From an uncultured Planctomycetales bacterium (GTDB taxonomy: Bacteria; Omnitrophota; Gorgyraeia; Zapsychrales; Fredricksoniimonadaceae): DNA of 64,000 nucleotides. The stretch covers positions 718,290 to 782,289 of the forward strand of contig CAZNDZ010000001.1 in assembly GCA_964572155.1 (NCBI GenBank). Direction: 5' to 3'. Shown piece after piece: positions 31,329 through 64,000 of this stretch (position 1 is its first letter; each line of letters opens with the position of its first letter). The translations under genes and the position numbers were made by a program. Below the pieces are notes generated by a model. It saw only the letters and a program-made list of their open reading frames with translations. It did no database searches and was not told the DNA's origin.

Positions 31329-31331
31329 TCT

Positions 31332-33719: not shown

Positions 33720-33722
33720 AGG

Positions 33723-33750: not shown

Positions 33751-33802
33751 GAGAATGTTATTTTAATTAAATTGTAACGAATTGTGTTTAATGAGGTTAA
33801 CT

Positions 33803-36036: not shown

Positions 36037-36048
36037 CGGCCTCAACGT

Positions 36049-36837
36049 ATGGAGAAAAGTATGGGCAAAAAAATAATGATTAATTTAACAAGTATGCTTC
36101 GCATGACCGTGCTCATGTTTGCGGTTTTTGCCTTATCGGCAAACGCTTCCGTGAATGCGGAAGACTTGCCAGATACCATGCCTCCATCGGAAGCGGAAGC
36201 GGCTGATCCTGCGGTTCAAGCAGCTCAAGAACGTGAACAATTTATTAAAGAAATCCGTCGTGTTGAGAATTTAAATCGTAAGTACACCGATCAAATCGAT
36301 GAGATCAAGGGCTTGCTCGCAGAAAAAGATGCAGATTTTCAAAAGCGCATGAAAGAATTGGAAGACAAAATGGCTTCCCAACAAAATGATGAAGGTAAAA
36401 AGAGTGTTGCTAAAGAACAAGAAACACAAATGTCTAAAGAATTAGAAAACAAAACTAATGAAATGTTGTCTAAGGGTGGTGATTTAGATCCAGAAGATCA
36501 ACAATTCAAAGAAGAATTAGCCAAAGCACATTACAACATGGGTAATATTTACTTTGAACGCGGTGAATATCAACGTGCTGTCGTCGAATATTACCAAGCA
36601 GTTGATTTAGTTCCTAATGATGCAGATACACATTACAATTTAGCTTTTATCAGTGGTGAATATTTAGGAGATCAAGAAACAGCGTTGAAGCATTATCAAT
36701 GGTACTTATATCTCAAACCAAACGCTGATGATAAAGATGCTATCAACGAAAAAGTTTTACAAGCAAAGATTCACTTAAGAGCAAAGATTGATTCACCGTT
36801 AGATAAAGATAATGGCAATTATAATTTGACCCGTTAA
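36049..36837 (+). CDS. Secreted TPR / coiled-coil protein, a possible secretin-associated (pilotin/PilF-like) factor.
   Basis: It has a signal peptide and a long charged coiled coil. TPR repeats are present (AHYNMGNIYFERGEYQRAVVEYYQAVDLVPNDADTHYNLAF). Its stop overlaps the next start. Confidence 0.5.
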   Translation: MEKSMGKKIMINLTSMLRMTVLMFAVFALSANASVNAEDLPDTMPPSEAEAADPAVQAAQEREQFIKEIRRVENLNRKYTDQIDEIKGLLAEKDADFQKRMKELEDKMASQQNDEGKKSVAKEQETQMSKELENKTNEMLSKGGDLDPEDQQFKEELAKAHYNMGNIYFERGEYQRAVVEYYQAVDLVPNDADTHYNLAFISGEYLGDQETALKHYQWYLYLKPNADDKDAINEKVLQAKIHLRAKIDSPLDKDNGNYNLTR

Positions 36838-38429: not shown

Positions 38430-38430
38430 T

Positions 38431-40050: not shown

Positions 40051-40104
40051 TTTTATAAAAATTGAGATTTTGATTTCGTGATCGAACAGAATAAAAAAGG
40101 GTTA

Positions 40105-43100
40105 ATGTTAAAAATTAAATTACAGTTAAAGAAACTGTGCGTCACAACGGTCATATTGATCGTCATGTCGATGGTTTCTTCCTCTGCATTTGCCCAATAC
40201 TCTGGCGGTTCACAAACTGGCAGCGGCGAAGCCACGATCGGTCAAGACATCTTCAAGGGTGGTCGCCAAGGTTCTTCCACCGTCGGAACTTCTAATGGTG
40301 GTTCTGCTTTATCTCATGGCGTAGCAACAAAGCTATATTTCGCTGTACAACCATCAGCGTCAAAACACAGTCACACCTTTGATCGTCAACCTGTAGTTGT
40401 TGTTCAAGATGCGAACGGAAATACAGTAACTGACGATAATACCACCCAAATCAAACTTGAAATCGGCAACAATCCAGGCAATGGGTATATCGAAGGTGTA
40501 ACCACGATTACAGTTGTTAATGGTGTTGCAACATTTTCAAATTTAAACATCAGCAAAGCTGGCCCACTATACACGTTAAAAGCTTCAGCAACAGGTCTTA
40601 CAACAGCATATTCAGAATCATTCGAGATTTATGCAGGTACTGGTCCAAAGGTTGCCGCAGTTTGGGATAATGCTGCAGGAAAATATCGCATTTATACTTG
40701 GGTTGAACAAGATAATCAAAGGCAAGATGTTGATAATACAGGTGATGATACCTGTGATACCCATACTATTTATGCATACGATGGTTCAACAGAAGCAACA
40801 TTAACAATGACAAAAGATGATGCAAATGATTATTGTTACACCGCTTCAGGAGATGCATGGACACCATCTAGTACAGCCAATTCCTATTTTCTTGATTTTC
40901 AGATTACGCTCGATGCTTCTTCTTATAGAACCTATGCTCCATTAGATTTAATTAAACCTGCTTTACAAGGCATTAGAGCGAAGACTGATTTAATTAATTG
41001 GACAAACGTTACAGATATTAAATCTAAAACAGACACGATTAACTGGACAGATGTCACGACCATTAATGCTCATACCAATAGCATCAATTGGCAAGATATT
41101 GGGGTCTTAAAATCAAACGTCAGCAGCATCAAATCAATAACAGACACCATTGATACATCAGTTAATTGGCAAGACATTGTTGTTCAAACGAAATCAGGTG
41201 TAAATTGGAAAGACATAGCTAGCACAACATTAAAGGGTATCAACTGGGATGATTTAAGCGTCTTAACAAATGTTGCGGTGAACTGGCGCGAACTTAATGT
41301 ATTAGGTAGAGCCGGTGTCAACTGGAACGACTTAAATACATTAACGCGCATTGGCGTCAATTGGCGTGATTTTGAAGTATTAGGTCGTGCACGTGTTAAT
41401 TGGTCTTCGATGGCTGAAATGGGTAAGGTTGGTATCAACTGGTATGACATGGCAGTCATGTCTGGTGCCCGTGTTACTTGGTCACAACAAATCAATTGGT
41501 ATAGCTTAGCTGATTTAACCACCGCTGGTGTTAATTGGTCGGATTTAAACGTTATGTCTGCAAAAAATATCAATTGGACCGACATCAATTCATTGAGTCG
41601 TGCAGGCGTTAATTGGAATAATTTCGGTTTATTAACCACAGTAGGTGTTAATTGGAATGATTTAACAGTCTTCTCAAGAACAATTATCAACTGGGATGAT
41701 TACGCCGTTCTTAGTCGTTCTGGAATCAATTGGGCGAACTTTGGTAATTTAACAACATCCAGCATTAACTGGAATGACATCAATGTTTTGTCGAGAAATG
41801 GCGTCAATTGGAACGACTTTGGTGTTCTCTCAAAAGCTGGCGTTAATTGGAACGATCTGCGTATCTTCACCAGAGCTGGTGTTAACTGGCAAGGCTTAAA
41901 TGTTTTTAGCAACACTTACGTTAATTGGGATGGGTTAAACCTTATGTCCACCAACGGCGTCAATTGGACAAATATTGGTTTACTCTCAACTGTAGGAGTT
42001 AATTGGGCAGATCTTAACGTAATGAGCCGCACTGGTGTAAACTGGGGCGATTTAAACCGCATGAGTGGTTTGGGTGTTAATTGGGCGGACTTAAATCGCT
42101 TAAGTGCCGTCGGTGTTAATTGGGCAGATTTAAATGTCTTAACAAAGTCTGGTATTAATTGGTATGACATGAACAGTTTCACAAAGGCGGGAATCAATTG
42201 GACAGACTTTGGTGTATTTAGTAAGACTGGCATCAATTGGAACAATATTAATATTTATGCAAGTGCCAATGTTAACTGGCAAGGGTTATATGTCTTAACA
42301 ACCAGTGGCATCAATTGGTCAAACATTGGAACCATGACAAGTACAGGTATTAATTGGAATGATTTTGCTGTCATGACTGTTAAGAGTTTGAATTGGGAAG
42401 ATTTTGGTATCCTGTCAAAGGTTGGCGTGAATTGGACAGATCTTGGAACATTTAGTAAAGCAGGTGTCAATTGGTATGATATTCAATCCATGGGTACTAA
42501 AGGAATTAACTGGAATGATTTTAATATATTAAGCAAAGCTTCAATTAATTGGACAGATTTTGGTTCTCTTGGCAAAGCAGGTATCAATTGGAACGATATT
42601 GGTGTTCTTTCTAAAAATGGCGTCAATTGGCAAGATTTAAATGTCATGTCTAAAGTAGGTATAAATTGGACTGATTTTAATCGTTTATCTGGTGTAGCGG
42701 TCAATTGGTCTGACATTGGTGTTTTATCAAAGATTGGAGTTAATTGGCAAGATTTCAACGTCATCAGCAAAGTTGGCGTTAATTGGAATGATTTTGGAGT
42801 TTTATCCAAAGCTGGTGTGAATTGGAGAGATTTAAATATCTTAAGCAGCACAGGTGTCAATTGGTATGACATGAATATTTTAAGCAATACTGGAACCAAT
42901 TGGTCTAATTTTGCTGTATTAAGTAAAGTTGGCGTTAATTGGAATGATTTTGGAGTTCTCTCAAAGGCAGGGATCAACTGGAATGATTTGACAGTGATGA
43001 GCCGCACCAATGTCAACTGGGGTGATTTAAATCGCATGAGCAGCCTCGGTGTAAATTGGGCAGATTTAAATCGCATGAGTGGACTTGGTGTCAATTGGCA

Positions 43101-52100: not shown

Positions 52101-55100
52101 CAACTGGAGTGATTTCGGGGTCATGTCAAAGACAGGCGTTAACTGGTATGACTTAAATGTCTTATCAAGGGTTGGCGTTAATTGGTATGACATGAATGTA
52201 CTGACTCGTAATAGCATCAACTGGAACAGCATTGCATCCTTAAGCTTAAATGGCATCAATTGGTCTAACTTCACAGTGATGTCACGCGCAGGTGTTAACT
52301 GGGTAGATTTAGGTGTCTTGTCTACATCATCTGTCAATTGGACAGGGATGAATGTCCTGTCTAATGCCAGCGTCAACTGGATCGGTATCGCTGATTTATC
52401 TCATACCAATGTTAACTGGGCTGCGTTACAAGATATTTCTTCCGCAAATGTTAACTGGGAAGGTATCGGTGTCTTAAGTAATTCTGGCGTTAATTGGAGC
52501 GACATCACGGTCTTAAGTAAGAACGGCATTAACTGGAGCGACCTATCTGTATTAGGTAGAACGGGCATCAATTGGAATGATATTGGTGTTGTTTCTAAGA
52601 CAGGCATCAATTGGAACGATTTGAATATCTTAAGCAAGACAGGCATCAATTGGTATGACATGAATCGTCTTTCTAACACAGGCATTAACTGGAATGATAT
52701 CGGCGTGTTAAGTAAGAACGGCGTTAACTGGAATGATTTCAATGTCATTAGTAAAGTTGGTATCAATTGGAGCGATTTAGGTGTGTTAGGCAAGACAGGC
52801 ATCAATTGGTATGACATGAATGTCTTGTCTAAGACAAATATCAATTGGAGCGATTTAAATGTCTTAACCAAGACAGGTATCAATTGGTATGACATGAACA
52901 TCTTGAGCAAGACCGGCATCAATTGGTATGACATGAATGTCTTAAGCAAGACAGGCATCAATTGGAATGACTTTGGTGTGTTATCGAAGAATGGCATTAA
53001 TTGGAATGACATGGGCGTCTTAACTAAAGTTGGCATCAATTGGAGCGACTTCAATGTTCTCTCTAATTCAGGGGTCAATTGGTATGACATGAATGTCTTA
53101 ACCAAGTCAGGTGTTAATTGGTATGACTTAAATGTCTTATCTAAGAATGGCATTAACTGGAATGATTTTGGTGTCTTGTCAAAGGTTGGCATCAACTGGA
53201 ATGACTTTAACGTCTTAAGCAAGAGCAATATCAATTGGTATGATTTCAACGTCTTAAGCAAGGTCGGCGTTAATTGGAGAGACTTAGGGATCTTAACCAA
53301 GTCCTCAATCAATTGGCAAGGATTGAACGACTTATCAAATTCAGGTGTCAACTGGACAAACTTAAGCATCTTAAGTGCTGCGTCCGTTAACTGGAGCGAT
53401 TTTGGAACATTAAGTAAAGCTGGCGTTAACTGGAATGATTTAGGTGTCTTAAGTAGAACAGGTGTTAATTGGAGCGATTGGGGCGTTTTAACTAAGACTG
53501 GTATAAATTGGAGTGACTTAAATGTCTTAAGCCGTACAGGATTAAATTGGAATGACATCGGTGTCTTAAGTAAAGTTGGCGTGAATTGGAGTGATTTGAA
53601 TGTTGTCAGCCGCACAGGTGTCAACTGGAATGATTTTGGTGTGCTCTCAAAGACAGGCATTAACTGGGGCGATTTAGGTGTGTTATCTAAGACAGGTGTT
53701 AACTGGTATGACATTAATGTCTTAAGCAAAAATAATATCAACTGGAATGACATTGGCGTATTAGCCAAGGCTGGCATTAACTGGTATGACTTCAACATTT
53801 TAAGCAAAGCTGGCGTCAACTGGTATGACTTAAATGTCTTAGGCAAATCTGGCATCAATTGGTATGACATGAATGTTTTAACCAAGACAGGTATCAATTG
53901 GAACGATTTAGGTGTATTGGCAAAAGCTGGCATCAATTGGAGCGACATGAATGTCATGAGCCGCACCGGCGTAAACTGGGGCGATTTAAACCGCATGAGC
54001 AGCTTGGGCGTTAATTGGGCAGACTTAAATCGCATGAGCGGCATTGGTGTCAACTGGCAAGATATCTCGGTATTAAGTAAGAATGGCATCAACTGGAATG
54101 ACTTCGGTGTCTTAAGCAAGACAGGTATTAATTGGAATGACATTGGCGTGTTATCGAACACAAGCATCAATTGGTATGACTTTAACGTCTTAAGCAAGAC
54201 CGGCATCAACTGGAATGATTTAGGTGTGATTTCCAAGACCGGCATCAACTGGAGTGATATCGGTGTCTTAGCAAAGACGGGCATCAACTGGAATGATATT
54301 AATGTGGTCAGCCGCACCAATATCAACTGGAGTGATTTTACAGTCTTAAGCAAAACAGGTATTAATTGGAATGATATCAGCCGCTTATCTACCGTCGGTG
54401 TAAATTGGAACGATATTGGTGTGTTATCAAAGAATGGTATCAACTGGAACGACTTAAATGTCTTAAGTAAAACAGGCATCAACTGGAATGACTTTGGTGT
54501 GATGTCAAAGGTTGGCGTCAACTGGTACGACATGAATGTCTTAAGTCGCACCGGCATTAACTGGAATGACGTAAATACATTAACCCGCAACGGCATCAAC
54601 TGGAAAGATTTGAGTGTCTTTAGCAATGCCGCGATCAACTGGCAAGGTTTGAATGACTTGTCGAACTCTGGTGTTAACTGGACCAACTTAAGTATCTTGA
54701 GCTCAGCGTCGGTTAACTGGAGTGATTTAGGCGCATTAAGTAAAGCCGGCGTTAACTGGAATGACTTTGGTGTCTTAAGCAAAACAGGCGTCAACTGGAG
54801 CGATTTAGGTATCTTAAGCAAGACAGGCATCAATTGGTATGACATGAATGTCTTATCAAAGACTGGTATCAACTGGTATGACTTCAACGTCTTAAGCCGT
54901 GCCGGCGTCAATTGGGGTGACTTGAATGTTGTTAGCCGCACTGGCGTTAACTGGAATGACTTCGGAGTTCTCTCTAAGACGGGTATTAACTGGAATGATT
55001 TAGGTGTCTTGTCAAAGACAGGTGTCAATTGGTATGACTTCAATGTCTTAAGCCGTGCTGGTGTTAATTGGGGCGATATGAATGTGATCAGTCGCACCGG

Positions 55101-58100
55101 CATCAACTGGAATGACTTTGGCGTCTTATCAAAGGCTGGCGTTAACTGGCAAGATTTCAATGTGGTCAGCCGCGCAAACATTAATTGGTATGATTACAAT
55201 GTCTTAAGCAAAGCTGGTATCAACTGGAATGATTTCAATGTCCTTTCTAAGGCTGGCGTCAACTGGTATGACTTAAATGTGTTGGGCAAGTCTGGCATCA
55301 ATTGGTATGACATGAATGTTTTAACCAAGACAGGTATCAATTGGAACGATTTAGGTGTATTGGCAAAAGCTGGCATCAATTGGAGCGACATGAATGTCAT
55401 GAGCCGCACCGGCGTAAACTGGGGCGATTTAAACCGCATGAGCAGCTTGGGCGTTAATTGGGCAGACTTAAATCGCATGAGCGGCATTGGTGTCAACTGG
55501 CAAGATATCTCGGTATTAAGTAAGAATGGCATCAACTGGAATGACTTCGGTGTCTTAAGCAAGACCGGTATTAACTGGAATGACATTGGTGTCTTAGCCA
55601 AGACAGGTATTAATTGGTATGACTTCAACGTCTTAAGCAAGACCGGCATCAACTGGAATGATTTAGGTGTGGTCTCCAAGACGGGCATCAATTGGAGCGA
55701 TATCGGTGTCTTAGCAAAGACAGGCATCAACTGGAATGACATTAATGTGGTAAGCCGTGCAAATATCAACTGGTATGACTTTAACGTCTTAAGCAAGACA
55801 GGCATCAATTGGAATGACATGAGCCGCTTGTCAACAGTTGGTATCAACTGGAATGACATTGGTGTGTTGTCGAAGAATGGCATCAACTGGAACGACTTAA
55901 ATGTCTTAAGCAAAACAGGCATCAACTGGTATGACTTCAATCGTCTCTCTAATACAGGCATCAATTGGAGCGACATGAATGTCTTGAGCCGCACAGGTAT
56001 CAATTGGAATGATTTCAATGTCTTAAGCAAGACAGGTGTTAACTGGAGAGATTTGAGCGTCTTTAGTAATGCCGCGATCAACTGGCAAGGTTTGAATGAC
56101 TTATCAAATTCTGGTGTTAACTGGACTAATTTAAGTATCTTGAGTGCAGCGTCTGTCAACTGGAGTGACTTAGGTGCATTAAGTAAAGCAGGCGTTAACT
56201 GGAATGACTTTGGTGTCTTAAGCAAAACAGGCATCAACTGGAGCGATTTAGGTATCTTAAGCAAGACAGGCATCAATTGGTATGACATGAATGTCTTATC
56301 AAAGACTGGTATCAACTGGTATGACTTCAACGTCTTAAGCCGTGCCGGCGTCAATTGGGGTGACTTGAATGTTGTTAGCCGCACTGGCGTTAACTGGAAT
56401 GACTTCGGAGTTCTCTCTAAGACGGGTATTAACTGGAATGATTTAGGTGTCTTGTCAAAGACAGGTGTCAATTGGTATGACTTCAATGTCTTAAGCCGTG
56501 CTGGTGTTAATTGGGGCGATATGAATGTGATCAGTCGCACCGGCATCAACTGGAATGACTTTGGCGTCTTATCAAAGGCTGGCGTTAACTGGCAAGATTT
56601 CAATGTGGTCAGCCGCGCAAACATTAATTGGTATGATTACAATGTCTTAAGCAAAGCTGGTATCAACTGGAATGATTTCAATGTCCTTTCTAAGGCTGGC
56701 GTCAACTGGTATGACTTAAATGTGTTGGGCAAGTCTGGCATCAATTGGTATGACATGAATGTTTTAACCAAGACAGGTATCAATTGGAACGATTTAGGTG
56801 TATTGGCAAAAGCTGGCATCAATTGGAGCGACATGAATGTCATGAGCCGCACCGGCGTAAACTGGGGCGATTTAAACCGCATGAGCAGCTTGGGCGTTAA
56901 TTGGGCAGACTTAAATCGCATGAGCGGCATTGGTGTCAACTGGCAAGATATCTCGGTATTAAGTAAGAATGGCATCAACTGGAATGACTTCGGTGTCTTA
57001 AGCAAGACCGGTATTAACTGGAATGACATTGGTGTCTTAGCCAAGACAGGTATTAATTGGTATGACTTCAACGTCTTAAGCAAGACCGGCATCAACTGGA
57101 ATGATTTAGGTGTGGTCTCCAAGACGGGCATCAATTGGAGCGATATCGGTGTCTTAGCAAAGACAGGCATCAACTGGAATGACATTAATGTGGTAAGCCG
57201 TGCAAATATCAACTGGTATGACTTTAACGTCTTAAGCAAGACAGGCATCAACTGGAATGACATGAGCCGCTTGTCAACGGTTGGCATCAACTGGAATGAT
57301 ATCGGTGTCTTAGCCAAGACTGGTATTAATTGGAACGACTTAAATGTCTTAACCAAGACAGGCATCAATTGGAATGACTTTGGTGTGTTGTCAAAGGTTG
57401 GCGTTAATTGGAATGACTTAAATGTCTTAAGCCGCACTGGCATCAATTGGAATGACGTTAATACGTTAACACGCAATGGTATTAACTGGAGAGATTTGAG
57501 CGTCTTTAGTAATGCCGCGATCAACTGGCAAGGTTTGAATGACTTATCAAATTCTGGTGTTAACTGGACTAATTTAAGTATCTTGAGTGCAGCGTCTGTC
57601 AACTGGAGTGACTTAGGTGCATTAAGTAAAGCAGGCGTTAACTGGAATGACTTTGGTGTCTTAAGCAAAACAGGCATCAACTGGAGCGATTTAGGTATCT
57701 TAAGCAAGACAGGCATCAATTGGTATGACATGAATGTCTTATCAAAGACTGGTATCAACTGGTATGACTTCAACGTCTTAAGCCGTGCCGGCGTCAATTG
57801 GGGTGACTTGAATGTTGTTAGCCGCACTGGCGTTAACTGGAATGACTTCGGAGTTCTCTCTAAGACGGGCATTAACTGGAATGACTTAGGTGTGTTAAGT
57901 AAGAATGGTGTCAATTGGTATGATTTCAATGTCTTAAGCAAGTCTGGCATCAATTGGAACGATATGAATGTCTTAACCAAGACTGGTATCAACTGGTATG
58001 ACATGAATGTCTTGAGCAAATCTGGCGTTAACTGGTCTGACCTAAATGTATTAACCAAGACAGGCATCAATTGGTATGATTTCAATGTCCTAAGCAAGGC

Positions 58101-61100: not shown

Positions 61101-64000
61101 AACGGGTGTTAATTGGAACGACATCAATTTGATCACCAGACTTGGCATCAACTGGAATGACTTAAATGCACTTAGCCGCACAGGTATTAATTGGAGTGAT
61201 TTTGCAGTATTGGCTAAGACGGGCATTAATTGGAATGATCTTGGTCGCTTGAGCACTGTTGGCATCAATTGGAATGATTTCAATGTCTTAAGCAAGACAG
61301 GTATCAACTGGAATGATTTAGGTGTCTTAAGCAAGACGGGTATCAATTGGAATGATATGAACCAAATGACACGCATCGGAGTCAATTGGAACGATATTGG
61401 CGTATTAAGCAAGACAGGTATTAATTGGAATGACTTTGGTGTATTAGCTAAGACGGGTATTAATTGGAATGATCTTGGTGTATTATCAAAGGCTTCAATT
61501 AATTGGGCTGGTATGAATACATTGAGTAATGCTGGTGTAAACTGGGCAAATTTAGGCATCTTAAGTAACGCGCAAGTTAATTGGTCTGATTTTGGAACTT
61601 TATCTAAGGCTGGCATTAACTGGAATGATTTAGGCATTATGAGCGAAATTGGCATCAACTGGCAAGACTTCAATCGTTTAAGCAGCACGGGCATTAATTG
61701 GAATAACATGAGCGTTATGAGCCGTGTCGCAATCAATTGGAATGACTTTGCAACGTTAAGTAATACAGGTATCAATTGGAACGATTTAGGTGTGGTCAGT
61801 AAGACGGGTGTCAATTGGAATGACTTTGGTGTCTTAAGCAAGACAGGTATCAATTGGTCAGACATTGGAGTTTTAGCGCGTACAGGTATTAATTGGAGTG
61901 ATTTCAATGTCTTAAGCAAGACAGGTATCAACTGGAATGACTTTGGTGTGTTGTCTAAAGTTGGGGTAAATTGGAATGACTTTGGTGTCTTAAGTAAGAC
62001 AGGTATTAACTGGAATGATTTAGGTGTATTAGGCAAGGTTGGCATTAACTGGAATGACTTTGGTGTATTAACTAAAACAGGCATCAATTGGAGCACCTTT
62101 GATGTGATTAGCAAAACAAATATTAATTGGAACGACTTTGGAGTTATGAGTAAGACTGGCATCAATTGGGGTGATTTAGGCGTCTTATCACGATCATCGA
62201 TTAATTGGGCTGGCATTACGTCACTCGCAAGTTCAGGCGTTAATTGGGAAAACTTCGGGGTCTTAACGAGCGCCGGTGTTAACTGGACCAACTTAAGTCA
62301 ATTAGCTGGCTCATCAATCAACTGGTCAGATTTAGGTGTGATGAGTACCACGGGTGTGAATTGGAGCGATCTTAATACCTTAAGCCGTACGGGTGTCAAT
62401 TGGAATGACTTTGGCGTCTTAGCTAAGGCTGGTATTAACTGGAATGACATGGGCGTATTAAGCCGCACCAGCATTAACTGGAGTGATTTCAGAGCGCTTA
62501 GCACCACAGGTATTAATTGGAATGATTTCAATATTCTGTCTAAGACGGGCATCAATTGGAGTAGCTTAGGTGTATTAAGCTCCTCTGGTATCAATTGGAC
62601 TGACTTCCAACGCTTAAGTACGACAGCAATCAATTGGGAAGATTTTGGAAGATTATCCACAGTCGGTATTAATTGGAATAACTTTGGTGTGATGAGCACG
62701 GTTGGTGTTAATTGGAATGATATCAACACATTGTCTAAGGCTGGTATTAACTGGAATGACTTAGGTGTTTGGAGCAAGGCAGGTATCAACTGGTCCAACT
62801 TTGACCTATTGACTAGAACAGATATCAACTGGAGTGATTTCTCATCCTTAACAAGAAATGGCATCAACTGGTCCAGCTTAGGTCAAATGAGTCAAGCAGG
62901 TGTTAATTGGAATGACTTTGCTGAGCTTGGTAGAATTGGCGTCAATTGGGAAGATTTCAATATCTTAACCCGCACAGGCATCAATTGGTCCAACTTTGGT
63001 GATATGACAACCAAGGGCGTCAACTGGATGGATATGAATCGTTTAACCATGGCTGGTGTGAATTGGAATGACATGAATGTGTTGACCAAGGCGGGCGTTA
63101 ATTGGGCTGGTATGTCTAACTTAACCAACAGCGGTGTAAATTGGGAAAGCATTGGTGGTTTATCTCGTACAACAATTAACTGGTTAGCGTTGGAAACAAT
63201 TTCTAGCGCAGGCGTCAACTGGGAAGGTATTGGTGTCATGAGCGACGCTGGTGTTAACTGGGCTGATTTTGCGAACCTCAGTACCCGTGGCGTCAATTGG
63301 GATGAAATTAGAAAAGTCACTGAAACAGGTATCAATTGGCAAGACTTAAACAGCCTTACAAACTCTGGTATTAACTGGAATAGCATCGGTTCCTTAACAA
63401 CATCGAACATTAATTGGACAGGCATTGATGTGATCTCTAGAACAACAATTAACTGGAATGATATTGGCAGATTATCAACTGTCGGTATCAACTGGACTGA
63501 TGTGTCTAAACAACATTCTGTTGGCATCAACTGGTACGACTTTGCCTTACAAACTGGTGCAGGTATTAATTGGGAAAATGTTTCGAGCGGTCAGTCTGGC
63601 GTCAACTGGGCAGGTATCAACTTCTTGATCAGCGGTGCTAGCGCGTTAAATAGAATTGGTGCAGCAACCGACTCAGCTAGCGCATCATCTACCACCTTGT
63701 TTGGAAAGCTTGGCTATGTGTCAGATCAGGTTACAAATTTAGGAACTACAACCGGATCTGCTGTTGATACTGTACTAACAACCGTGAATACAATTTCAGA
63801 TACATTGGGTTCTTCAACAGACACATCAGCATCAAACACGATCTTTGGTGATATCAAGAATGTTGAAGCCTACATTGGTACCAACACAACTGGTCAAAGC
63901 ATCTTTACAAACTTAGCGAATATTTCAACAGCCGCCACCAAGGGCAAGAGCAGTGCGGATGCTGCCTTAGGTTATACTCAAGAAATCATTGCGGCTATCG
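40105..64000 (+). CDS. Giant secreted tridecapeptide-repeat protein, 3' end truncated by the window. At least 7,965 aa lie inside the window.
   Basis: The ATG is at 40105, after AAAAAGGG. The signal peptide is MLKIKLQLKKLCVTTVILIVMSMVSSSAFA|QY. Frame 1 is open wherever checked: 40105 to about 43600, then 47041, 50461, 52381, 56641, 60481 and 63541-63999. The array begins at about 40981. The ORF track has no + entry only because no stop occurs before the window end. Confidence 0.85.
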   Translation, partial: MLKIKLQLKKLCVTTVILIVMSMVSSSAFAQYSGGSQTGSGEATIGQDIFKGGRQGSSTVGTSNGGSALSHGVATKLYFAVQPSASKHSHTFDRQPVVVVQDANGNTVTDDNTTQIKLEIGNNPGNGYIEGVTTITVVNGVATFSNLNISKAGPLYTLKASATGLTTAYSESFEIYAGTGPKVAAVWDNAAGKYRIYTWVEQDNQRQDVDNTGDDTCDTHTIYAYDGSTEATLTMTKDDANDYCYTASGDAWTPSSTANSYFLDFQITLDASSYRTYAPLDLIKPALQGIRAKTDLINWTNVTDIKSKTDTINWTDVTTINAHTNSINWQDIGVLKSNVSSIKSITDTIDTSVNWQDIVVQTKSGVNWKDIASTTLKGINWDDLSVLTNVAVNWRELNVLGRAGVNWNDLNTLTRIGVNWRDFEVLGRARVNWSSMAEMGKVGINWYDMAVMSGARVTWSQQINWYSLADLTTAGVNWSDLNVMSAKNINWTDINSLSRAGVNWNNFGLLTTVGVNWNDLTVFSRTIINWDDYAVLSRSGINWANFGNLTTSSINWNDINVLSRNGVNWNDFGVLSKAGVNWNDLRIFTRAGVNWQGLNVFSNTYVNWDGLNLMSTNGVNWTNIGLLSTVGVNWADLNVMSRTGVNWGDLNRMSGLGVNWADLNRLSAVGVNWADLNVLTKSGINWYDMNSFTKAGINWTDFGVFSKTGINWNNINIYASANVNWQGLYVLTTSGINWSNIGTMTSTGINWNDFAVMTVKSLNWEDFGILSKVGVNWTDLGTFSKAGVNWYDIQSMGTKGINWNDFNILSKASINWTDFGSLGKAGINWNDIGVLSKNGVNWQDLNVMSKVGINWTDFNRLSGVAVNWSDIGVLSKIGVNWQDFNVISKVGVNWNDFGVLSKAGVNWRDLNILSSTGVNWYDMNILSNTGTNWSNFAVLSKVGVNWNDFGVLSKAGINWNDLTVMSRTNVNWGDLNRMSSLGVNWADLNRMSGLGVNWQDFTVLTKAGINWTDFGVIGRTGINWYDLNVFTKSGINWTDFGVYTKVSINWVSLALQSTNAVNWNDVAKLSASNVNWNFFSALSTTNVNWNDITVLSKAGINWNDIGVLAANGVNWNDLNVLTKVGVNWNDFAVLGKSGINWRDLGILSTVAINWQDFNVMSKTGVNWGDLNRMSSLGVNWADLNRMSALGVNWADFNVLTRSGINWNDFGVLSKTGVNWNDLGVLAKAGVNWNDFGVLSKIGINWNDLNVLSKVGTNWRDFAVLSTVAVNWQDMNVISKSGVNWNDFGVLSKSGVNWQDLNVLSKNGINWNEFVVLGRAGINWQDINVISKVGVNWSDFNVLSRNGVNWQDLNVLSKAGLNWQDFNVLSKSRVNWQDFTVLSSAAINWQDINVLSKAGANWQDLNVLTKGGVNWQDINTLTKAGINWQDMNQLTRTGINWQDVNVLTKTGVNWQNFNVLTSSGINWQDLNVLSKTAINWNDFGVLAKAGVNWNDLNVLSKSGVNWNDFGVLSKNGVNWNDLNVLTRSGINWNDMNALSRAAVNWNDFNVLTRTSINWQDFTSLSKAGVNWNDLNVLSKTGINWQDFNVITRTNVNWQDLNVLSKAGVNWNDFGVLTNSSVNWTGLNLLTTAGVNWANLNVLSTTGVNWADFGVLTKIGVNWSDLNVLTKSGVNWQDFGVLSKVGVNWQNFNVLSNAGINWNDIGVLAKTGINWNDLNVMSRTGVNWGDLNRMSSLGVNWADLNRMSGLGVNWADFTVLTKAGVNWNDFGVMSRVAANWYDLNVFTRASINWNDFGVLAKAGINWNDLNVVTKANVNWNDFAVLSKIGVNWQDMNVLTRNAVNWSDFSVMSRSSINWQGLNTLTTAGVNWTNLNVLSSTGVNWTDLGILTTTGINWQDFNTLSKAGVNWNDLGVLSKTSINWQDFTVLGKAGINWNSLGVMSKVGVNWNDFTVMSRSNVNWADLNSMSSLGVNWADLNRMSGLGVNWQDFTVLTKAGVNWNDFGVMSRVAVNWSDFNVLSKSGINWSDLGVLGKTGINWNDFNVLSKSSINWNDLGVLAKAGVNWNDFNVLSKSGVNWNDLNVLSKAGVNWNDINVITRVGVNWNDFVVLGRAGVNWNDFGVVSKTGINWNDFGVLAKAGINWNDLNVLSKVGVNWNDFGVLGKAGINWNDLNVLSRAAVNWSDINVLSKIGVNWQDLNVLTKTGVNWSDMGALSKAGVNWQNIGILSTVGVNWQDFNTLSKAGVNWNDFGVLSKVGVNWSDLNVLSKTGINWNDFGALSKIGVNWQDLNVLSKAGLNWNDIGVLSKTGINWNDFAVYSKVGINWQDFGVLSKAGLNWTDFGVLSKTGVNWQDLNVLTRNGVNWNDFGVLSKAGVNWNDLNVLSKIGINWSDFNVLTKSSINWNDLNVLSKSGVNWNDFGVLAKTGVNWQDFNVLTRTGVNWNDFGVISKVGVNWQDLNTLSKVGINWQDFAVLAKTSINWQDFAVLGKAGVNWNDFGVLSKSGVNWQDLNVMSRSAVNWGDLNHMSSVGVNWADLNRMSGLGVNWQDFTILTKAGVNWNDFGVMSKVGVNWSDLNVVSKIGVNWSDFTVLSKIGVNWQDLNVMSKVAVNWGDFAVLSKTSINWNDMNVLSRNNINWNDFGVMSKVGVNWNDMNVLSKANINWYDMNVLSKIGVNWQDLNVVSKTGVNWNDFGVMSKVGVNWNDLNVLSKSGINWHDFGVLTKSAVNWSGLNSLSTAGVNWSNLNLLSSANVNWTDLGILSSAGVNWNDMARLTTTAINWNDINVLTRTGINWNDLNVLSRIGMNWADYSVQTRAGINWYDLNVMSRTGVNWGDLNLMSSLGVNWADLNRMSGLGVNWQDFNVLTKAGINWNDFGVMSKVGANWNDLNVLTKVGINWMDVSVLGKTGINWQDLNTLSKSGINWNDFGVLSKIGVNWNDLNVLSRTGVNWNDVGVLSKTGVNWQNMNVLSNVGINWNDIGVLSKNGVNWNDLNVLTKSGINWNDIGVFSRVNINWQDLNVFSRTGINWNDFGVLSKIGVNWSDLGVMSKVAVNWSDFSVLSKTGLNWNDLNVLSRNNINWNDFGVISKVGINWNDMNVLSKANVNWIDVGVLSKTGVNWQDLNVLSKTAINWNDFGVLSKVGVNWNDFNVISKVGVNWNDFGVLSKIGVNWTDFGSLTKANINWNDLNVIGRTGINWNDFGVLSKVGVNWNDMNVLTKSGINWYDFNVLSKAGVNWYDMTVMTRNSVNWAGLSSLSNAGVNWTNLGILTSANVNWSDLGTLSKASINWVDIGLLGTSGINWSDVSVLSRTSVNWNDLNVLTKSGVNWNDFGVMSKIGVNWSDLNVISRTGVNWNDFGVLTKTAVNWQDLSVASRIGVNWNDFGVLSKIGVNWQDMNVLSKNGINWLDMNVLTKAGVNWSDAATLSKASINWNDFAVLGKTGINWYNFNVLSRVGVNWNDLAVMSRSSVNWSDLNSMSSLGVNWADLNRMSGLGVNWSDITVLSKSGINWNNFGVLSTVGINWNSLSVMGNVGVNWNDIQVISKTGINWNDLNVLTKTGVNWNDFGVMSKVGVNWSDLNVLSRTSINWNDMNVLTRIGVNWQDLNVLSKTGVNWNDFGVMSKIGVNWQDFNVLSKTGVNWNDFGVISKTGINWYDLNVLTKSGVNWNDFGVLSKVGVNWYDMNVITRNGINWNDFGVLSKAGVNWSDMNVITRIGMNWSDMSVLSKTGLNWSDIGVLSKTGVNWNDLNVVSRTGINWNDFGVLSKIGVNWSDMNVLSKTGINWYDFNVLSRAGINWRDLNILTKTSVNWVGLSSLSNAGVNWTNLGTLTSSSVNWSDLGALSNAGVNWNDFGVLSKTGINWQDLNVFTRASINWSDFGVLSKTGINWYDLNVVTKAGLNWNDIGVLSKNGINWNDIGVLSKVGINWNDISVVSKTSVNWSDLNVLTKAGINWNDFGVYSKAGINWYDMSVYSKVGINWYDMNILTKSGVNWNDLSILSKTAINWSDFGVMSKTGVNWYDLNVLSRVGVNWYDMNVLTRNSINWNSIASLSLNGINWSNFTVMSRAGVNWVDLGVLSTSSVNWTGMNVLSNASVNWIGIADLSHTNVNWAALQDISSANVNWEGIGVLSNSGVNWSDITVLSKNGINWSDLSVLGRTGINWNDIGVVSKTGINWNDLNILSKTGINWYDMNRLSNTGINWNDIGVLSKNGVNWNDFNVISKVGINWSDLGVLGKTGINWYDMNVLSKTNINWSDLNVLTKTGINWYDMNILSKTGINWYDMNVLSKTGINWNDFGVLSKNGINWNDMGVLTKVGINWSDFNVLSNSGVNWYDMNVLTKSGVNWYDLNVLSKNGINWNDFGVLSKVGINWNDFNVLSKSNINWYDFNVLSKVGVNWRDLGILTKSSINWQGLNDLSNSGVNWTNLSILSAASVNWSDFGTLSKAGVNWNDLGVLSRTGVNWSDWGVLTKTGINWSDLNVLSRTGLNWNDIGVLSKVGVNWSDLNVVSRTGVNWNDFGVLSKTGINWGDLGVLSKTGVNWYDINVLSKNNINWNDIGVLAKAGINWYDFNILSKAGVNWYDLNVLGKSGINWYDMNVLTKTGINWNDLGVLAKAGINWSDMNVMSRTGVNWGDLNRMSSLGVNWADLNRMSGIGVNWQDISVLSKNGINWNDFGVLSKTGINWNDIGVLSNTSINWYDFNVLSKTGINWNDLGVISKTGINWSDIGVLAKTGINWNDINVVSRTNINWSDFTVLSKTGINWNDISRLSTVGVNWNDIGVLSKNGINWNDLNVLSKTGINWNDFGVMSKVGVNWYDMNVLSRTGINWNDVNTLTRNGINWKDLSVFSNAAINWQGLNDLSNSGVNWTNLSILSSASVNWSDLGALSKAGVNWNDFGVLSKTGVNWSDLGILSKTGINWYDMNVLSKTGINWYDFNVLSRAGVNWGDLNVVSRTGVNWNDFGVLSKTGINWNDLGVLSKTGVNWYDFNVLSRAGVNWGDMNVISRTGINWNDFGVLSKAGVNWQDFNVVSRANINWYDYNVLSKAGINWNDFNVLSKAGVNWYDLNVLGKSGINWYDMNVLTKTGINWNDLGVLAKAGINWSDMNVMSRTGVNWGDLNRMSSLGVNWADLNRMSGIGVNWQDISVLSKNGINWNDFGVLSKTGINWNDIGVLAKTGINWYDFNVLSKTGINWNDLGVVSKTGINWSDIGVLAKTGINWNDINVVSRANINWYDFNVLSKTGINWNDMSRLSTVGINWNDIGVLSKNGINWNDLNVLSKTGINWYDFNRLSNTGINWSDMNVLSRTGINWNDFNVLSKTGVNWRDLSVFSNAAINWQGLNDLSNSGVNWTNLSILSAASVNWSDLGALSKAGVNWNDFGVLSKTGINWSDLGILSKTGINWYDMNVLSKTGINWYDFNVLSRAGVNWGDLNVVSRTGVNWNDFGVLSKTGINWNDLGVLSKTGVNWYDFNVLSRAGVNWGDMNVISRTGINWNDFGVLSKAGVNWQDFNVVSRANINWYDYNVLSKAGINWNDFNVLSKAGVNWYDLNVLGKSGINWYDMNVLTKTGINWNDLGVLAKAGINWSDMNVMSRTGVNWGDLNRMSSLGVNWADLNRMSGIGVNWQDISVLSKNGINWNDFGVLSKTGINWNDIGVLAKTGINWYDFNVLSKTGINWNDLGVVSKTGINWSDIGVLAKTGINWNDINVVSRANINWYDFNVLSKTGINWNDMSRLSTVGINWNDIGVLAKTGINWNDLNVLTKTGINWNDFGVLSKVGVNWNDLNVLSRTGINWNDVNTLTRNGINWRDLSVFSNAAINWQGLNDLSNSGVNWTNLSILSAASVNWSDLGALSKAGVNWNDFGVLSKTGINWSDLGILSKTGINWYDMNVLSKTGINWYDFNVLSRAGVNWGDLNVVSRTGVNWNDFGVLSKTGINWNDLGVLSKNGVNWYDFNVLSKSGINWNDMNVLTKTGINWYDMNVLSKSGVNWSDLNVLTKTGINWYDFNVLSKAGINWNDFGTLTKTGINWYDFNILSKTGINWNNFGVLSKVGINWNDMSVMSRASVNWADLNSMSSLGVNWADLNRMSSIGVNWNDIGVLSKTGINWNDFGVISKTGINWNDFGVLTKVGVNWNDLGVLAKTGINWSDFNVLTKTGINWSDLGVLAKTGVNWNDIGVLAKTGINWNDLNVLSRTNINWSDFGVLSKNGINWYDMNVLSRAGINWNDIGVLAKTGVNWNDFGVLSKTGINWNDLGVLAKASINWSDIGVLSKTGVNWNDLNVISRTGVNWNDFGVLSKVGVNWNDLNVLSQSSINWQDFNVLSKTGVNWRDLGVLTKSSINWQGLNDLTNSGVNWTNLSILSAASVNWSDLGALSKAGVNWNDFGVLSKNGINWNDMNVMSRTGVNWSDLNRMSSLGVNWADLNKMSSIGVNWQDIGVLSTTGINWHDFGVLSKTGINWNDFGVIGKMGINWSDFTVLSKVGINWNDMSVLSKNGINWNDIGVLAKTGINWNDLNVISRTNVNWSDIGVLSKTGLNWNDLNVLTRTGINWSDFGVLAKTGVNWNDLGVLSKTGVNWNDIGVLAKTGINWNDFGVLSKTGINWNDFGVLAKSGINWNDFGVMTKTGLNWNDLNVLTRTGINWYDMNRLSNTGINWNDMARLSTVGINWNDIGVLAKTGINWNDLNVLSKTAINWNDIGVLSKNGINWSDMNVLSRTGINWNDFNVLSRVAVNWRDMSVLSNASINWRGLNDLSNSGVNWTNLSILSAAAVNWSDFGALSKAGVNWNNLGVMSTVGINWNDFSKLSQTGINWNDLNVLSKSGINWSGIDVLSSAGVNWQNFGVLTNAGVNWTNMSLLSASAINWTDLGVMTTIGVNWNDIQALTTKGVNWNDFGVLSKVGINWNDMSVLARTGINWNDFNVLSRNGINWYDMNRLSNTGINWNDISVLARTGINWNDLGVVSKTGINWNDFGVLSKNGINWNDLGVLSKTGLNWSDFAVMGKTGINWNDLGVLSKTGVNWNDINLITRLGINWNDLNALSRTGINWSDFAVLAKTGINWNDLGRLSTVGINWNDFNVLSKTGINWNDLGVLSKTGINWNDMNQMTRIGVNWNDIGVLSKTGINWNDFGVLAKTGINWNDLGVLSKASINWAGMNTLSNAGVNWANLGILSNAQVNWSDFGTLSKAGINWNDLGIMSEIGINWQDFNRLSSTGINWNNMSVMSRVAINWNDFATLSNTGINWNDLGVVSKTGVNWNDFGVLSKTGINWSDIGVLARTGINWSDFNVLSKTGINWNDFGVLSKVGVNWNDFGVLSKTGINWNDLGVLGKVGINWNDFGVLTKTGINWSTFDVISKTNINWNDFGVMSKTGINWGDLGVLSRSSINWAGITSLASSGVNWENFGVLTSAGVNWTNLSQLAGSSINWSDLGVMSTTGVNWSDLNTLSRTGVNWNDFGVLAKAGINWNDMGVLSRTSINWSDFRALSTTGINWNDFNILSKTGINWSSLGVLSSSGINWTDFQRLSTTAINWEDFGRLSTVGINWNNFGVMSTVGVNWNDINTLSKAGINWNDLGVWSKAGINWSNFDLLTRTDINWSDFSSLTRNGINWSSLGQMSQAGVNWNDFAELGRIGVNWEDFNILTRTGINWSNFGDMTTKGVNWMDMNRLTMAGVNWNDMNVLTKAGVNWAGMSNLTNSGVNWESIGGLSRTTINWLALETISSAGVNWEGIGVMSDAGVNWADFANLSTRGVNWDEIRKVTETGINWQDLNSLTNSGINWNSIGSLTTSNINWTGIDVISRTTINWNDIGRLSTVGINWTDVSKQHSVGINWYDFALQTGAGINWENVSSGQSGVNWAGINFLISGASALNRIGAATDSASASSTTLFGKLGYVSDQVTNLGTTTGSAVDTVLTTVNTISDTLGSSTDTSASNTIFGDIKNVEAYIGTNTTGQSIFTNLANISTAATKGKSSADAALGYTQEIIAAI
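40981..63610 (+). repeat. Coding tandem array of about 580 copies of a 39-bp (13-aa) unit, consensus (V/I)LSK(T/A)G(V/I)NW(N/x)D(F/L)(G/N), inside the giant gene.
   Basis: An invariant TGG (Trp) codon recurs every 39 nt. The first few units are 15 aa (TDLINWTNVTDIKSK), and the array settles to 13 aa by about 41160. Units differ mostly at synonymous sites, such as ggt/ggc/gga and aat/aac. Confidence 0.9.
53881..57890 (+). repeat. Three near-identical tandem copies of a 1,443-bp higher-order unit (37 x 39 bp) inside the array.
   Basis: The sequence from 53881 is repeated from 55324 and again from 56767, an offset of 1,443 bp each time. Long stretches are nucleotide-identical, for example 54841.. 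with 56284.., and 56030.. with 57470... Copy 3 diverges between about 57300 and 57470. Confidence 0.85.

Follow-up and report, generated by a model that had tools for sequence, protein, structure and literature searches.

Giant open reading frames are common in the Omnitrophota and have been reported close to genes of type II secretion or type IV pili, according to the available parts of the published reports (West-Roberts et al., 2023; Seymour et al., 2023, PMC10066038; Nielsen and Lui, 2026). The Archaeovorin/dockerin-type giants of this phylum, for which a role in breaking down the cell walls of prey has been proposed, have as defining features many transmembrane regions together with SecA DEAD-like, dockerin/TSP3 and enzyme domains; upstream of them lies a secretion system with over ten subunits, gspD, gspE, gspF, rcpC and a rotamase among them (West-Roberts et al., 2023, bioRxiv 10.1101/2023.11.21.568195). 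In the catalogue of Nielsen and Lui (2026, bioRxiv 10.64898/2026.06.07.730766), giants with a signal peptide only (8.6%) and Pfam-dark giants (137 of 916) are minority classes. The available part of Seymour et al. (2023, PMC10066038) describes 'symbiotic' type-2/3 F-type ATPase/type IVa pilus loci, invokes an analogy between the Omnitrophota ATPase and Mycoplasma gliding, and proposes a 'coat' role for another giant protein of the phylum. Omnitrophota are widespread, uncultured bacteria of around 0.2 micrometres that are thought to be predators or parasites.

Gliding in Mycoplasma mobile uses the giant surface 'leg' proteins Gli349 and Gli521, which are driven by an F1-like ATPase. The adhesins LapA, SiiE and Marinomonas MpIBP are exported by type I secretion with ABC/MFP/TolC partners; they have Ig-like extenders of about 100 aa and, at the C-terminus, RTX repeats and a secretion signal, but lack a Sec signal at the N-terminus. 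SprB, a surface filament adhesin of around 6,500 aa in Bacteroidota gliding and type IX secretion, works with GldJ and GldK. Solenoids with very short periods include the Tenebrio antifreeze protein (12-residue coils), the bacterial ice-nucleation protein (16-residue coils) and the RTX beta-roll.

Here we describe a giant gene of an Omnitrophota bacterium whose product is 93% one 13-residue repeat. The relevant features of the window, by which we mean the whole 64,000-nt stretch of DNA that was analysed, are as follows:

30084 to 33719, + strand: upstream genes of the locus (S41 peptidase, OSCP-like, GT2, DUF2304, GT2); the order S41, GT2a, GT2b is kept in related genomes
31332 to 31673, + strand: OSCP-like protein, 113 aa; gene called in L001, L082 and L083
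31670 to 32386, + strand: first GT2
32383 to 32736, + strand: DUF2304; gene called in L001, L082 and L083
32733 to 33719, + strand: second GT2
33782 to 34399, + strand: small membrane protein whose C-terminal region weakly resembles GspC (T2SSC, PF11356, E=3e-4, under the cut-off; GspC_delta, E=8e-5)
34396 to 36036, + strand: secretin, 546 aa (PF00263, E=3e-49; Secretin_N, PF03958, E=9e-22)
36049 to 36837, + strand: TPR protein that has a signal peptide and is similar to PilW, Tgl or MshN (secretin pilotin/accessory), all below the family cut-offs
36837 to 38429, + strand: FGE-fold protein 1, 530 aa, signal peptide (PF03781, E=1.4e-12)
38386 to 40050, + strand: FGE-fold protein 2, 554 aa, signal peptide (PF03781, E=2e-16); paralogue of the gene upstream, conserved beside the giant gene
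40105 to 63999, + strand: giant gene as far as the window shows it, 7,965 codons (~880 kDa), continuing past the window edge
40105 to 40194, + strand: Sec-type signal peptide, aa 1-30, cleavage after AFA (direct reading)
40195 to 40989, + strand: N-terminal head, aa 31-295, 43-58% identical in orthologues
40990 to 41487, + strand: transition zone, aa 296-461, with the first ~12 Asn-Trp units at irregular spacings (15, 15, 26, 19)
41488 to 63600, + strand: regular array, aa 462-7832, 567 consecutive 13-residue (39-nt) units with no indels
53800 to 57900, + strand: higher-order repeat, three copies of 1,443 nt (37 units), exact identity up to 1,018 nt
63601 to 63999, + strand: first part of the conserved C-terminal tail, outside the repeats, rich in Thr and Ser and with T-x-F-G motifs; the window edge interrupts it

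Translation of the + strand from the ATG at 40105 (preceding in-frame stop at 40063) meets no stop as far as 63999, while the region's base composition gives an expectation of 0.070 stops per codon and a log10 probability of a stop-free frame of about -251. The first-pass annotation had read this uninterrupted frame, and a signal peptide at its start, correctly; its figure of over 24 kb within the window is too high, as the in-window part measures 23,896 nt. An independent assembly has an identical sequence for the first 2.7 kb. We conclude that this frame is a true gene and codes for a protein. Its in-window product has a pI of 5.2, three cysteines, of which none is in the repeats, and 0.1% proline. 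The window tail aligns with the complete tails of three relatives (P0072, P0075 and P0078), which are 75-115 aa longer and end in VVKT[WY]FE; the gene, judged by this alignment, probably ends ~75-115 codons past the window edge, for a total of ~8,050-8,080 aa. A size described beforehand as extremely rare in bacteria is so for bacteria in general, but not for Omnitrophota, and ~8,070 aa is still below the 10,000-aa cut-off of the Nielsen and Lui (2026) catalogue.

The signal peptide and its cleavage junction read MLKIKLQLKKLCVTTVILIVMSMVSSSAFA followed by QYSGG, and a junction of A-x-A followed by Q-Y/F-x-G-G is kept in the orthologues. In a hydrophobicity scan with 19-aa segments, the Kyte-Doolittle mean rises above 1.6 in the signal peptide alone, the maximum elsewhere being 1.04. 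Because it has a signal peptide and no other hydrophobic segment, the protein is predicted to be Sec-exported and not membrane-embedded, with no membrane helices past the signal peptide. The head consists of a Gly/Ser-rich linker, an Ig-like beta-sandwich (~aa 70-180) and a second conserved domain (aa 180-295). The Ig-like N-terminal domain proposed at first reading is supported by homologues, aa 70-180 matching proteins annotated as Big_1, invasin_D3 or CarboxypepD_reg, but not by the direct scan of the N-terminus, which gave no Pfam or NCBIfam match. Across the family the type of head varies (Ig-like, LamG or GLUG-type), and the tail and the partner encoded downstream are conserved. The conserved tail comprises ~290 aa; a protein database search with it returned a single homologue (41%), and the giant protein itself had no entry there. 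Scans of genome and metagenome collections for exact copies of the window's last 37 bases gave no match.

Between head and tail the protein carries 579 Asn-Trp motifs, and 573 of the 578 spacings are exactly 13 residues. The lead-in to the array, KTDTINW, is common to the orthologues, and the consensus of the units in the window is G-[IV]-N-W-x-D-[LF]-[NG]-V-L-S-K-x. The conserved Asn, Gly, Asp, Val and Leu of the unit are encoded by mixed synonymous codons, and the Ser at position 11 by AGY (265 times), by TCT/TCA (115 times) and by further TCN codons; this use of mixed synonymous codons and of two serine codon families is consistent with selection at the protein level in the + frame. An offset-identity scan of the window revealed the 37-unit super-repeat, whose three near-identical blocks mark a recent expansion.

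The repeat family is found almost only in metagenome-derived Omnitrophota genomes, where it is nearly always cut off by contig ends. There were 310 family matches among 1.84 billion representative proteins, and all named members are hypothetical or partial proteins of Candidatus Omnitrophota. Orthologues of the giant gene were found in 18 genomes and 29 metagenome loci, and in 16 of the 18 genome loci the orthologous head runs into the same repeat. Over 6,794 units from 51 loci, Asn-Trp is 100% invariant, and the family-wide pattern is G-[IV]-N-W-x-D-h-x-x-[LM]-[ST]-x-x at exact 13-residue spacing. Family members differ mainly in unit number and head type. The number of units extends from ~30 to at least 632, and probably to ~1,250: complete short members have 900 aa (P0078) and 1,292 aa (P0075), a long member on ORBV01000005.1 has at least 8,495 aa and 632 motifs, and the member on Ga0163146_10000109 probably reaches ~16,800 aa. 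We define the family by the Sec signal, the variable head, the array, the conserved tail ending in VVKT[WY]FE, and the slot between the secretin module and the partner and F-ATPase genes. Those of these features that are visible in the window are present in the protein described here; the end of its tail and its downstream genes are extrapolated from relatives. Thousands of units with an invariant Asn-Trp, an exact 13-residue register and no indels make this a notable protein architecture.

The repeat has no genuine match among Pfam, NCBIfam or PDB families. Matches of the repeats to Pfam and NCBIfam models (Pox_A31, Ntox33, ACT_9, MlrC_C, CbiE and an iron oxidase) contain no individually significant stretch and were set aside as artefacts of periodicity or composition. 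The Lysostaphin_N model (PF25533) reached whole-protein scores of 202 and 157 bits, above its cut-off, yet again had no individually significant stretch; we read this score as an artefact in which many weak period-13 matches are summed, and to our knowledge the 13-residue propeptide repeat of lysostaphin has no Asn-Trp. A profile search of the PDB by sequence with 56 ten-unit segments gave a flagellin as its best match (E=0.005), with all others weaker, and was treated as chance, and interpretations of the consensus as LRR-like or RTX-like were rejected by eye, as the conserved positions do not fit. A literature search on 13-residue tryptophan repeats found nothing relevant. Within the literature and libraries searched, the Asn-Trp 13-residue repeat family and its fixed position in the locus appear to be undescribed, and the family's lack of membrane helices and enzyme domains is apparently also new.

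Modelling of repeat units with AlphaFold, as suggested in the first-pass annotation, produced structures, but two runs disagree. The first gave an all-beta model (pLDDT 68.9, pTM 0.64; one of five models), and the second a model with one 9-residue helix per unit (pLDDT 67.5, pTM 0.24). Neither matches a solved fold; in a Foldseek search of the PDB, the best matches of the all-beta model were beta-helices, with E values of at least 0.07 and TM scores of at most 0.35. The hydrophobic moment of the window's own units shows no clear lean in periodicity, but across the family conservation and hydrophobicity peak at 100-120 degrees, that is, helical. Because the repeat has no solved or catalogued relative, and the predictions conflict, it may be a new repeat fold. 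Like the short-period solenoids, the array is made of very short, regular tandem units with invariant residues that could form ladders, and one of the two models is an all-beta stack; unlike them, it has no TxT or GGxGxD and no significant structural match, and short helices fit the second model and the family-wide periodicity better.

The giant gene starts 54 nt downstream of a co-oriented string of genes that contains the secretin, in agreement with the earlier reading that it follows a secretin operon in the same orientation. As far as contigs reach, the order S41 peptidase, GT2, GT2, GspC-like, secretin, TPR, FGE-fold 1, FGE-fold 2, giant gene is found in all 18 related species-level genomes, with proteins that are 38-87% identical (secretin 62-87%). 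On gene order, we regard the adjacency of secretin and giant gene as not accidental, because the same order recurs in 18 of 18 genomes. The secretin, with its Secretin and Secretin_N domains, points to a type IVa/MSHA-like pilus or type II outer-membrane module; against the PilQ, GspD and MshL models it scores 173-238 bits, each below the curated cut-off. The counterpart of the GspC-like gene in the related locus L083 has a precomputed T2SSC match. In both FGE-fold proteins only a core of ~55 aa aligns with solved FGEs; neither has a lipobox, nor a cysteine following the RGGSW or RGGDF motif, the place that we take to hold the active-site cysteine pair of FGE. Because the cysteines and the substrate motif (C-x-P-x-R) are absent, a catalytic FGE role for the two proteins was rejected.

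The window holds only the outer-membrane part of the locus (GspC-like, secretin and TPR); downstream of the giant gene, relatives have the genes for the ATPase and the platform protein, as well as an F-type ATPase operon of a non-canonical kind. In all 29 tail-bearing metagenome loci, as far as the contigs extend, the giant gene is followed by the partner, F-ATPase alpha/beta, epsilon, gamma, beta/alpha and T2SSE, with the T2SSE homologue present wherever the locus extends far enough. The partner is ~455 aa long and has a C-terminal membrane anchor. The full locus is seen in L083, where an F-type ATPase operon, an MshE/PilB-like ATPase and PilC/GspF come after the giant gene. Judged by these relatives, from which the downstream gene set at the window locus is extrapolated, the giant gene is fixed between a secretin module and an unusual F-type ATPase operon in Omnitrophota nanobacteria.

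The system had been taken at first reading to be one that has not been described. This goes too far, because giant genes that neighbour secretion or pilus loci have been published for the Omnitrophota, and the novelty narrows to the repeat family and its fixed position. Outside the phylum, LapA, SiiE and MpIBP offer a likeness in their head, long repetitive extender and anchor, in a length set by repeat number, and in surface attachment; the protein described here differs in its 13-residue units and N-terminal Sec signal, and neither a Pfam RTX match in the giant protein nor ABC/MFP genes in its neighbourhood were found. SprB with GldJ and GldK likewise presents, at the level of Pfam comparison, a giant surface filament with non-catalytic FGE-fold and TPR proteins, but there are no type IX secretion genes here and the FGE-fold proteins lack a lipobox and share the FGE core only.

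We consider it reasonably likely that this real gene of an undescribed repeat family encodes a very long surface attachment fibre for contact with host or prey. The giant protein is probably a very long cell-surface fibre, to which we would assign attachment as its role. In the mechanism that we propose, the chain would be exported unfolded via Sec, with almost no cysteine or proline to slow folding, and its units would fold successively into a regular rod. The Asn-Trp pairs would form a continuous ladder, so that rod length would be proportional to unit number. The rod would measure ~0.14-0.55 micrometres, depending on whether the units are beta coils or short helices, and would be similar in length to, or longer than, the cells of ~0.2 micrometres that have been reported for Omnitrophota. 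The variable head would emerge first and form the distal, binding end; the conserved tail would stay at the envelope, bound to the membrane-anchored partner. This polarity is supported by the variability of the heads and the conservation of tail and partner. The rod would pass through, or be held at, the neighbouring secretin, a passage suggested by synteny. The outcome would be a very long attachment fibre in contact with host or prey cells, whose length may evolve via unequal recombination among units. Rod length would then differ at least 20-fold between species, in a predicted Sec-exported, enzyme-free protein.

Several other readings of the locus have to be weighed against this one. We see next to no chance that the antisense ORFs on the minus strand are real genes, even though 13 long ones, of up to 1,278 aa, appear in the ORF listing between 41184 and 63530. 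One minus frame has just 44 stops, where the other two antisense frames have 851 and 613 and the remaining + frames 728 and 867; the frame of the giant gene has none, and the 44-stop frame is the wobble-sharing antisense of a biased, low-complexity repeat and no rival gene. The signal peptide and the non-repeat head and tail with their orthologues also belong to the + frame, the two serine codon families are consistent with selection on its residues, and its order and orientation are kept with the neighbouring genes. Improbable as well is an assembly artefact, in which a real ORF would have an array length exaggerated or collapsed by near-identical repeats. Short-read assemblies of the same organism do break in the array: contig Logan SRR10036063 (L082) equals window positions 28386-42798 with no mismatches and ends 2.7 kb into the repeats, and the short-read contigs with exact protein matches stop either before the giant gene or at that depth. 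The exact repeats at 53.8-57.9 kb make this stretch an assembly-risk zone, and its unit copy number could be mis-assembled. Elsewhere the array is assemblable, because its units are only ~64% identical in DNA, and against an artefact stand the unbroken frame of 567 units and the independent assemblies of relatives, which have arrays equally long or longer.

That the protein belongs with the Archaeovorin/dockerin-type giants has, in our estimate, a very slim chance. It shares with them the phylum, a giant ORF of more than 20 kb, a position near genes for type II secretion or type IV pili and a suggested part in cell contact. It differs in having no membrane helix past the signal peptide and no genuine Pfam domain: a Pfam search over the 7,965 aa found no SecA DEAD-like, dockerin, TSP3 or carbohydrate-active domains, and none were found in the homologous tails. 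The gene sets differ as well, with only a secretin, a weak GspC-like protein, a TPR protein and the two FGE-fold proteins upstream, compared with the system of over ten subunits, and in relatives the partner and F-type ATPase downstream, the GspE/F-type genes following after the ATPase operon. Rather unlikely, on our weighing, is a Sec-exported scaffold of the envelope or periplasm, or a coat or matrix around the cell, with the secretin serving a type IV pilus only. Secretin, TPR and PilB/PilC-type genes do by themselves make up a normal type IVa/MSHA-like pilus set, the contig of one short member has an FGE-fold gene adjacent and no adjacent secretin, and the coat proposal of Seymour et al. 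(2023), in the part of that report available, is a precedent from the same phylum. However, a rod as long as or longer than the cell would be hard to house in the periplasm, the variable lectin-like and Ig-like heads fit an outward-facing binding end, and the giant gene is strictly kept at one insertion point, after the secretin module and before the partner gene.

The attachment fibre that we favour could also be part of something larger. In relatives, the order secretin, TPR, F-type ATPase operon, MshE/PilB-like, PilC/GspF fits the 'symbiotic' loci as presented in the available part of Seymour et al. (2023), which makes no mention of repeat-fibre and partner genes that separate the outer-membrane genes of the pilus from the ATPase operon; the window covers the upstream half of this arrangement. 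We regard it as quite unlikely, though worth stating, that the Asn-Trp protein is the mechanical output of an unrecognised envelope machine in diderm nanobacteria: a sub-micrometre fibre of a new repeat fold, delivered through a dedicated secretin, held by its partner, and extended, retracted or moved by the non-respiratory F-type ATPase and the pilus-type ATPases, by analogy with the gliding legs of Mycoplasma mobile, to capture or crawl on hosts. The likeness would lie in the pairing of two elements, an F-type ATPase that does not serve respiration and very large surface proteins that act on the surfaces of hosts. There is, however, no sequence relationship, Mycoplasma mobile is a monoderm without a secretin, and a mechanical link between ATPase and fibre in Omnitrophota is conjectural. 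The giant genes and the odd F-type ATPase by type IV pilus genes were published separately, neither with a structural candidate; the repeat family is such a candidate for both and brings experiments on the idea of a symbiosis locus within reach. The family also explains a recurrent break point of Omnitrophota metagenome assemblies.

Translation of the plus strand from the ATG at 40105 to 63999 gives 7,965 codons without a stop, as the first-pass annotation had claimed; its figure of over 24 kb is too large, however, as the in-window length of the giant gene is 23,896 nt. The nearest in-frame stop 5' of the ATG lies at 40063. Because the regional base composition predicts 0.070 stops per codon, the chance of an open run of this length is approximately 10^-251, and four of the five alternative frames of 40105-63999 contain 613-867 stops. 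The remaining frame is antisense, retains 44 stops in 23.9 kb, and carries the following ORFs.

41184-63530, minus strand: 13 long antisense ORFs tiling the giant gene, 168 to about 1,278 aa

These ORFs are the product of an antisense frame whose wobble positions coincide with those of the sense frame in a biased repeat. The probability that they are true genes is negligible, given the stops that remain and the lack of the signal peptide, orthologous head, tail, family and synteny that the sense frame has. They are a potential trap for gene callers.

The N-terminal region of the protein is organized as follows.

Residues 1-30, plus strand: Sec signal peptide, junction AFA|QYSGG
Residues 31-295, plus strand: head, 43-58% identity among orthologues

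The signal peptide had been noted on first reading, and its cleavage junction is kept in orthologues; beyond it, a hydrophobicity scan of the giant protein found no segment reaching membrane-helix level. The Ig-like N-terminal domain proposed at the same time is supported indirectly: homologues of residues ~70-180 of the head are annotated as Big_1, invasin_D3 or CarboxypepD_reg, but the N-terminus of the window protein itself has no match in Pfam or NCBIfam.

Between residues 298 and 7834 lie 579 Asn-Trp motifs, with an exact 13-residue spacing in 573 of 578 intervals, and from residue 462 on there are 567 consecutive units with no indels. The units follow the consensus G-[IV]-N-W-x-D-[LF]-[NG]-V-L-S-K-x, in which Asn3 and Trp4 do not vary; the array also shows a weak periodicity of two units, and punctuation motifs at intervals of ~31-46 units. 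The protein has an extreme composition (Asn 15.7%, Trp 7.3%, Pro 0.1%, Glu 0.3%), and Cys is absent from the repeats. The 39-nt units share only ~64% DNA identity, and synonymous codons are mixed at conserved residues, including both Ser codon families (Ser11 is AGY 265 times and TCT or TCA 115 times, with other TCN codons besides), which we read as a sign that selection acts on the protein in the plus-strand frame. Comparison of the repeat with Pfam, NCBIfam and the PDB gave no genuine family match. PF25533 (Lysostaphin_N), itself a 13-residue repeat region, scored 202 bits for one half of the protein and 157 for the other, with no individually significant stretch; this candidate was rejected, as its whole-sequence score exceeds the curated cut-off through shared periodicity alone.

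An independent short-read contig (Logan SRR10036063) shows identity to the window over 28386-42798, ending 2.7 kb into the giant gene. Further into the array, which is otherwise diverged, one region stands apart.

~53.8-57.9 kb (53800-57900), plus strand: three near-identical tandem 37-unit (1,443-nt) blocks, exact stretches of up to 1,018 nt

Their near-identity indicates a recent expansion by unequal recombination, and makes the copy number uncertain in this region, which is probably a weak point of the assembly. We consider it improbable that the number of units is locally mis-assembled.

A 390-aa repeat query found only 310 matches (E<=1e-3) among 1.84 billion representative proteins, the longest of the best 150 being 2,809 aa. 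The named members all belong to Candidatus Omnitrophota, are annotated as 'hypothetical', 'carboxypeptidase-like regulatory domain' or 'LamG domain', and are mostly flagged partial. Among genomes taken one per species, a scan identified 18 loci with an orthologous head, mostly labeled Omnitrophota or Omnitrophica, though some automated labels differ; the repeat frame leaves the locus or contig in 16 of these, and in 14 it already carries up to 260 units. In all 29 tail-bearing loci from a metagenome scan the repeat frame is open at its 5' side. The array on ORBV01000005.1, where two overlapping loci were merged, is at least 8,495 aa long with 632 motifs, and is still truncated. On contig Ga0163146_10000109 (L113), which has the head at ~25.6 kb and the stop at 76,088, the frame is open and its phase constant in all parts read, on either side of the middle 25 kb, so the gene is probably ~50 kb long, encoding ~16,800 aa. 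An apparent frameshift at ~27.45 kb (about 27,426-27,477) parts head from array on this contig, while the frame runs on unbroken in the sister contig L114, which comes from another sample; the frameshift is either a sequencing error or the mark of a phase-variable or pseudogenised copy.

Across 6,794 units from 51 loci Asn-Trp is 100% invariant, and the variable positions are 5, 8, 9, 12 and 13. At surface positions 8 and 12 the units of some species are rich in Asp (126/145 and 133/145 units in the related locus L088), those of others, the window among them, in Lys/Arg, so that the charge of the shaft flips between lineages. Runs of ~14 units also occur in otherwise unrelated extracellular proteins of 1,100-1,400 aa (database entries P0089 and P0096), a type with GLUG-like heads and multiple Ig-like domains, which suggests that the repeat behaves as a mobile spacer module.

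Past residue ~7,850 a Thr/Ser-rich non-repeat tail begins, which is cut by the window edge. Its one database homologue, P0072 (41% identity), lies on a contig in which an Asn-Trp array ends, followed by a stop and then by a downstream gene. The tail is common to two complete short members, P0078 (900 aa) and P0075 (1,292 aa), and ends in VVKT[WY]FE or VVTAWME in such members. The aligned window tail wants 75-115 residues, and by homology the complete protein is predicted to have ~8,040-8,080 aa.

The giant gene follows a secretin gene string in the same orientation, as first described. The upstream order is S41 peptidase, OSCP-like protein, GT2, DUF2304, GT2, weak GspC-like protein, secretin, TPR protein and two FGE-fold paralogues, and is unchanged in 18 of 18 related genomes as far as contigs reach.

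31332-31673, plus strand: OSCP-like (ATP synthase delta-like) 113-aa protein, upstream of the glycosyltransferases
36837-40050, plus strand: two paralogous FGE-sulfatase-fold signal-peptide proteins with a common ~170-aa unannotated N-terminal domain
13888-15255 in L083 and 872-1450 in L003 (related loci): partner gene, no Pfam match, following the repeat gene in all tail-bearing loci

The match of the FGE-fold proteins to solved FGEs is limited to a ~55-aa core, neither sequence has a Cys after the RGG motif, and the giant protein has no C-x-P-x-R substrate motif; we therefore regard them as non-catalytic partners. One FGE-fold gene also lies 5' of P0078, and L083-type subfamilies have three ~190-aa paralogous secreted proteins in this position.

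The downstream side is seen in relatives only, where the repeat gene is followed by the ~455-aa partner, which has a signal peptide, a pair of repeated beta-rich modules with coiled-coil-like segments and a C-terminal membrane helix, and shares 35% identity between distant loci (E=1e-41). An F-type ATPase operon, an MshE/PilB-like ATPase with PilZ and a GspF/PilC-type gene come next, in an order kept in 29 of 29 tail-bearing loci as far as contigs extend. As in relatives the remaining non-canonical F-type ATPase genes lie 3' of the giant gene, the OSCP-like gene is cut off from them by the whole fibre locus. This gene set matches the 'symbiotic' F-type ATPase / type IVa pilus loci described for all Omnitrophota classes in PMC10066038; the text consulted makes no mention of a fibre gene between the pilus half and the ATPase half.

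When AlphaFold2 was run on 20 units (28 in-register paralogous rows), only one of five models came out as an all-beta stack, each unit contributing two short strands (pLDDT 68.9, pTM 0.64); its top PDB matches are beta-helices, below significance. A composition high in Asn, Gly, Val, Ser and Trp and low in Ala and Glu, and the ladder-like absolute invariance of Asn-Trp, also favor a beta or solenoid fold. Variability and hydrophobicity across the family, in contrast, peak at a periodicity of 100-120 degrees, which favors helices. We take [IV]-N-W-x-D-[LF] to fit a hydrophobic staple and capping box, and L-S-K-x-G-[IV] a Schellman C-cap. We lean slightly towards a helical repeat; a beta fold is a lesser but real possibility, and any other fold is improbable. 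A regular rod is expected whichever fold applies. By generic geometry, 579 units would extend ~0.14 or ~0.28 micrometres as beta coils (0.48 nm per 26 or 13 residues) or ~0.55 micrometres at ~0.95 nm per helix; Omnitrophota cells are reported to measure ~0.2 micrometres.

A surface fibre exported through Sec is the reading that the evidence favors: its head varies and is of a binding type, its inert shaft differs in length among members, its tail is conserved, as is a membrane-anchored partner, and its gene keeps a fixed place beside the secretin. We propose that the head would form the distal end, possibly as an adhesin, and that the partner and/or the secretin would hold the tail at the envelope; the fibre may pass through the secretin, and coupling to the ATPase is conceivable. 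The same protein could instead serve as an envelope or coat scaffold without threading through the secretin, which we consider rather unlikely. That the protein belongs to the published Archaeovorin or dockerin classes is very unlikely, as the hallmarks looked for in the giant protein (transmembrane regions, SecA-like and dockerin domains) are absent. The fibre system was initially held to be undescribed, and this stands in part: giant ORFs of Omnitrophota close to secretion or pilus genes are already published (West-Roberts 2023; Seymour 2023; Nielsen & Lui 2026), and the 2026 catalogue includes signal-peptide-only and Pfam-dark giants without description, but our literature search turned up no account of the 13-residue Asn-Trp repeat, of the partner gene, or of the fixed place that the repeat gene has between the secretin module and the F-type ATPase.

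The wider surroundings of the fibre locus in the window include two further features.

19761-24302, plus strand: ORF of 1,513 aa with a signal peptide, no Pfam or meaningful NCBIfam match
25054-30073, plus strand: glycine-cleavage operon gcvT, gcvH, gcvP1, gcvP2 and lipoate-protein ligase

The glycine-cleavage operon is flanked by a cell-division (dcw/FtsA) cluster and the fibre locus, and these housekeeping neighbors place the latter on the chromosome. The 1,513-aa ORF, large, exported and uncharacterised, has a PMT_2-like membrane protein (17673-19676) on one side and the glycine-cleavage genes on the other.
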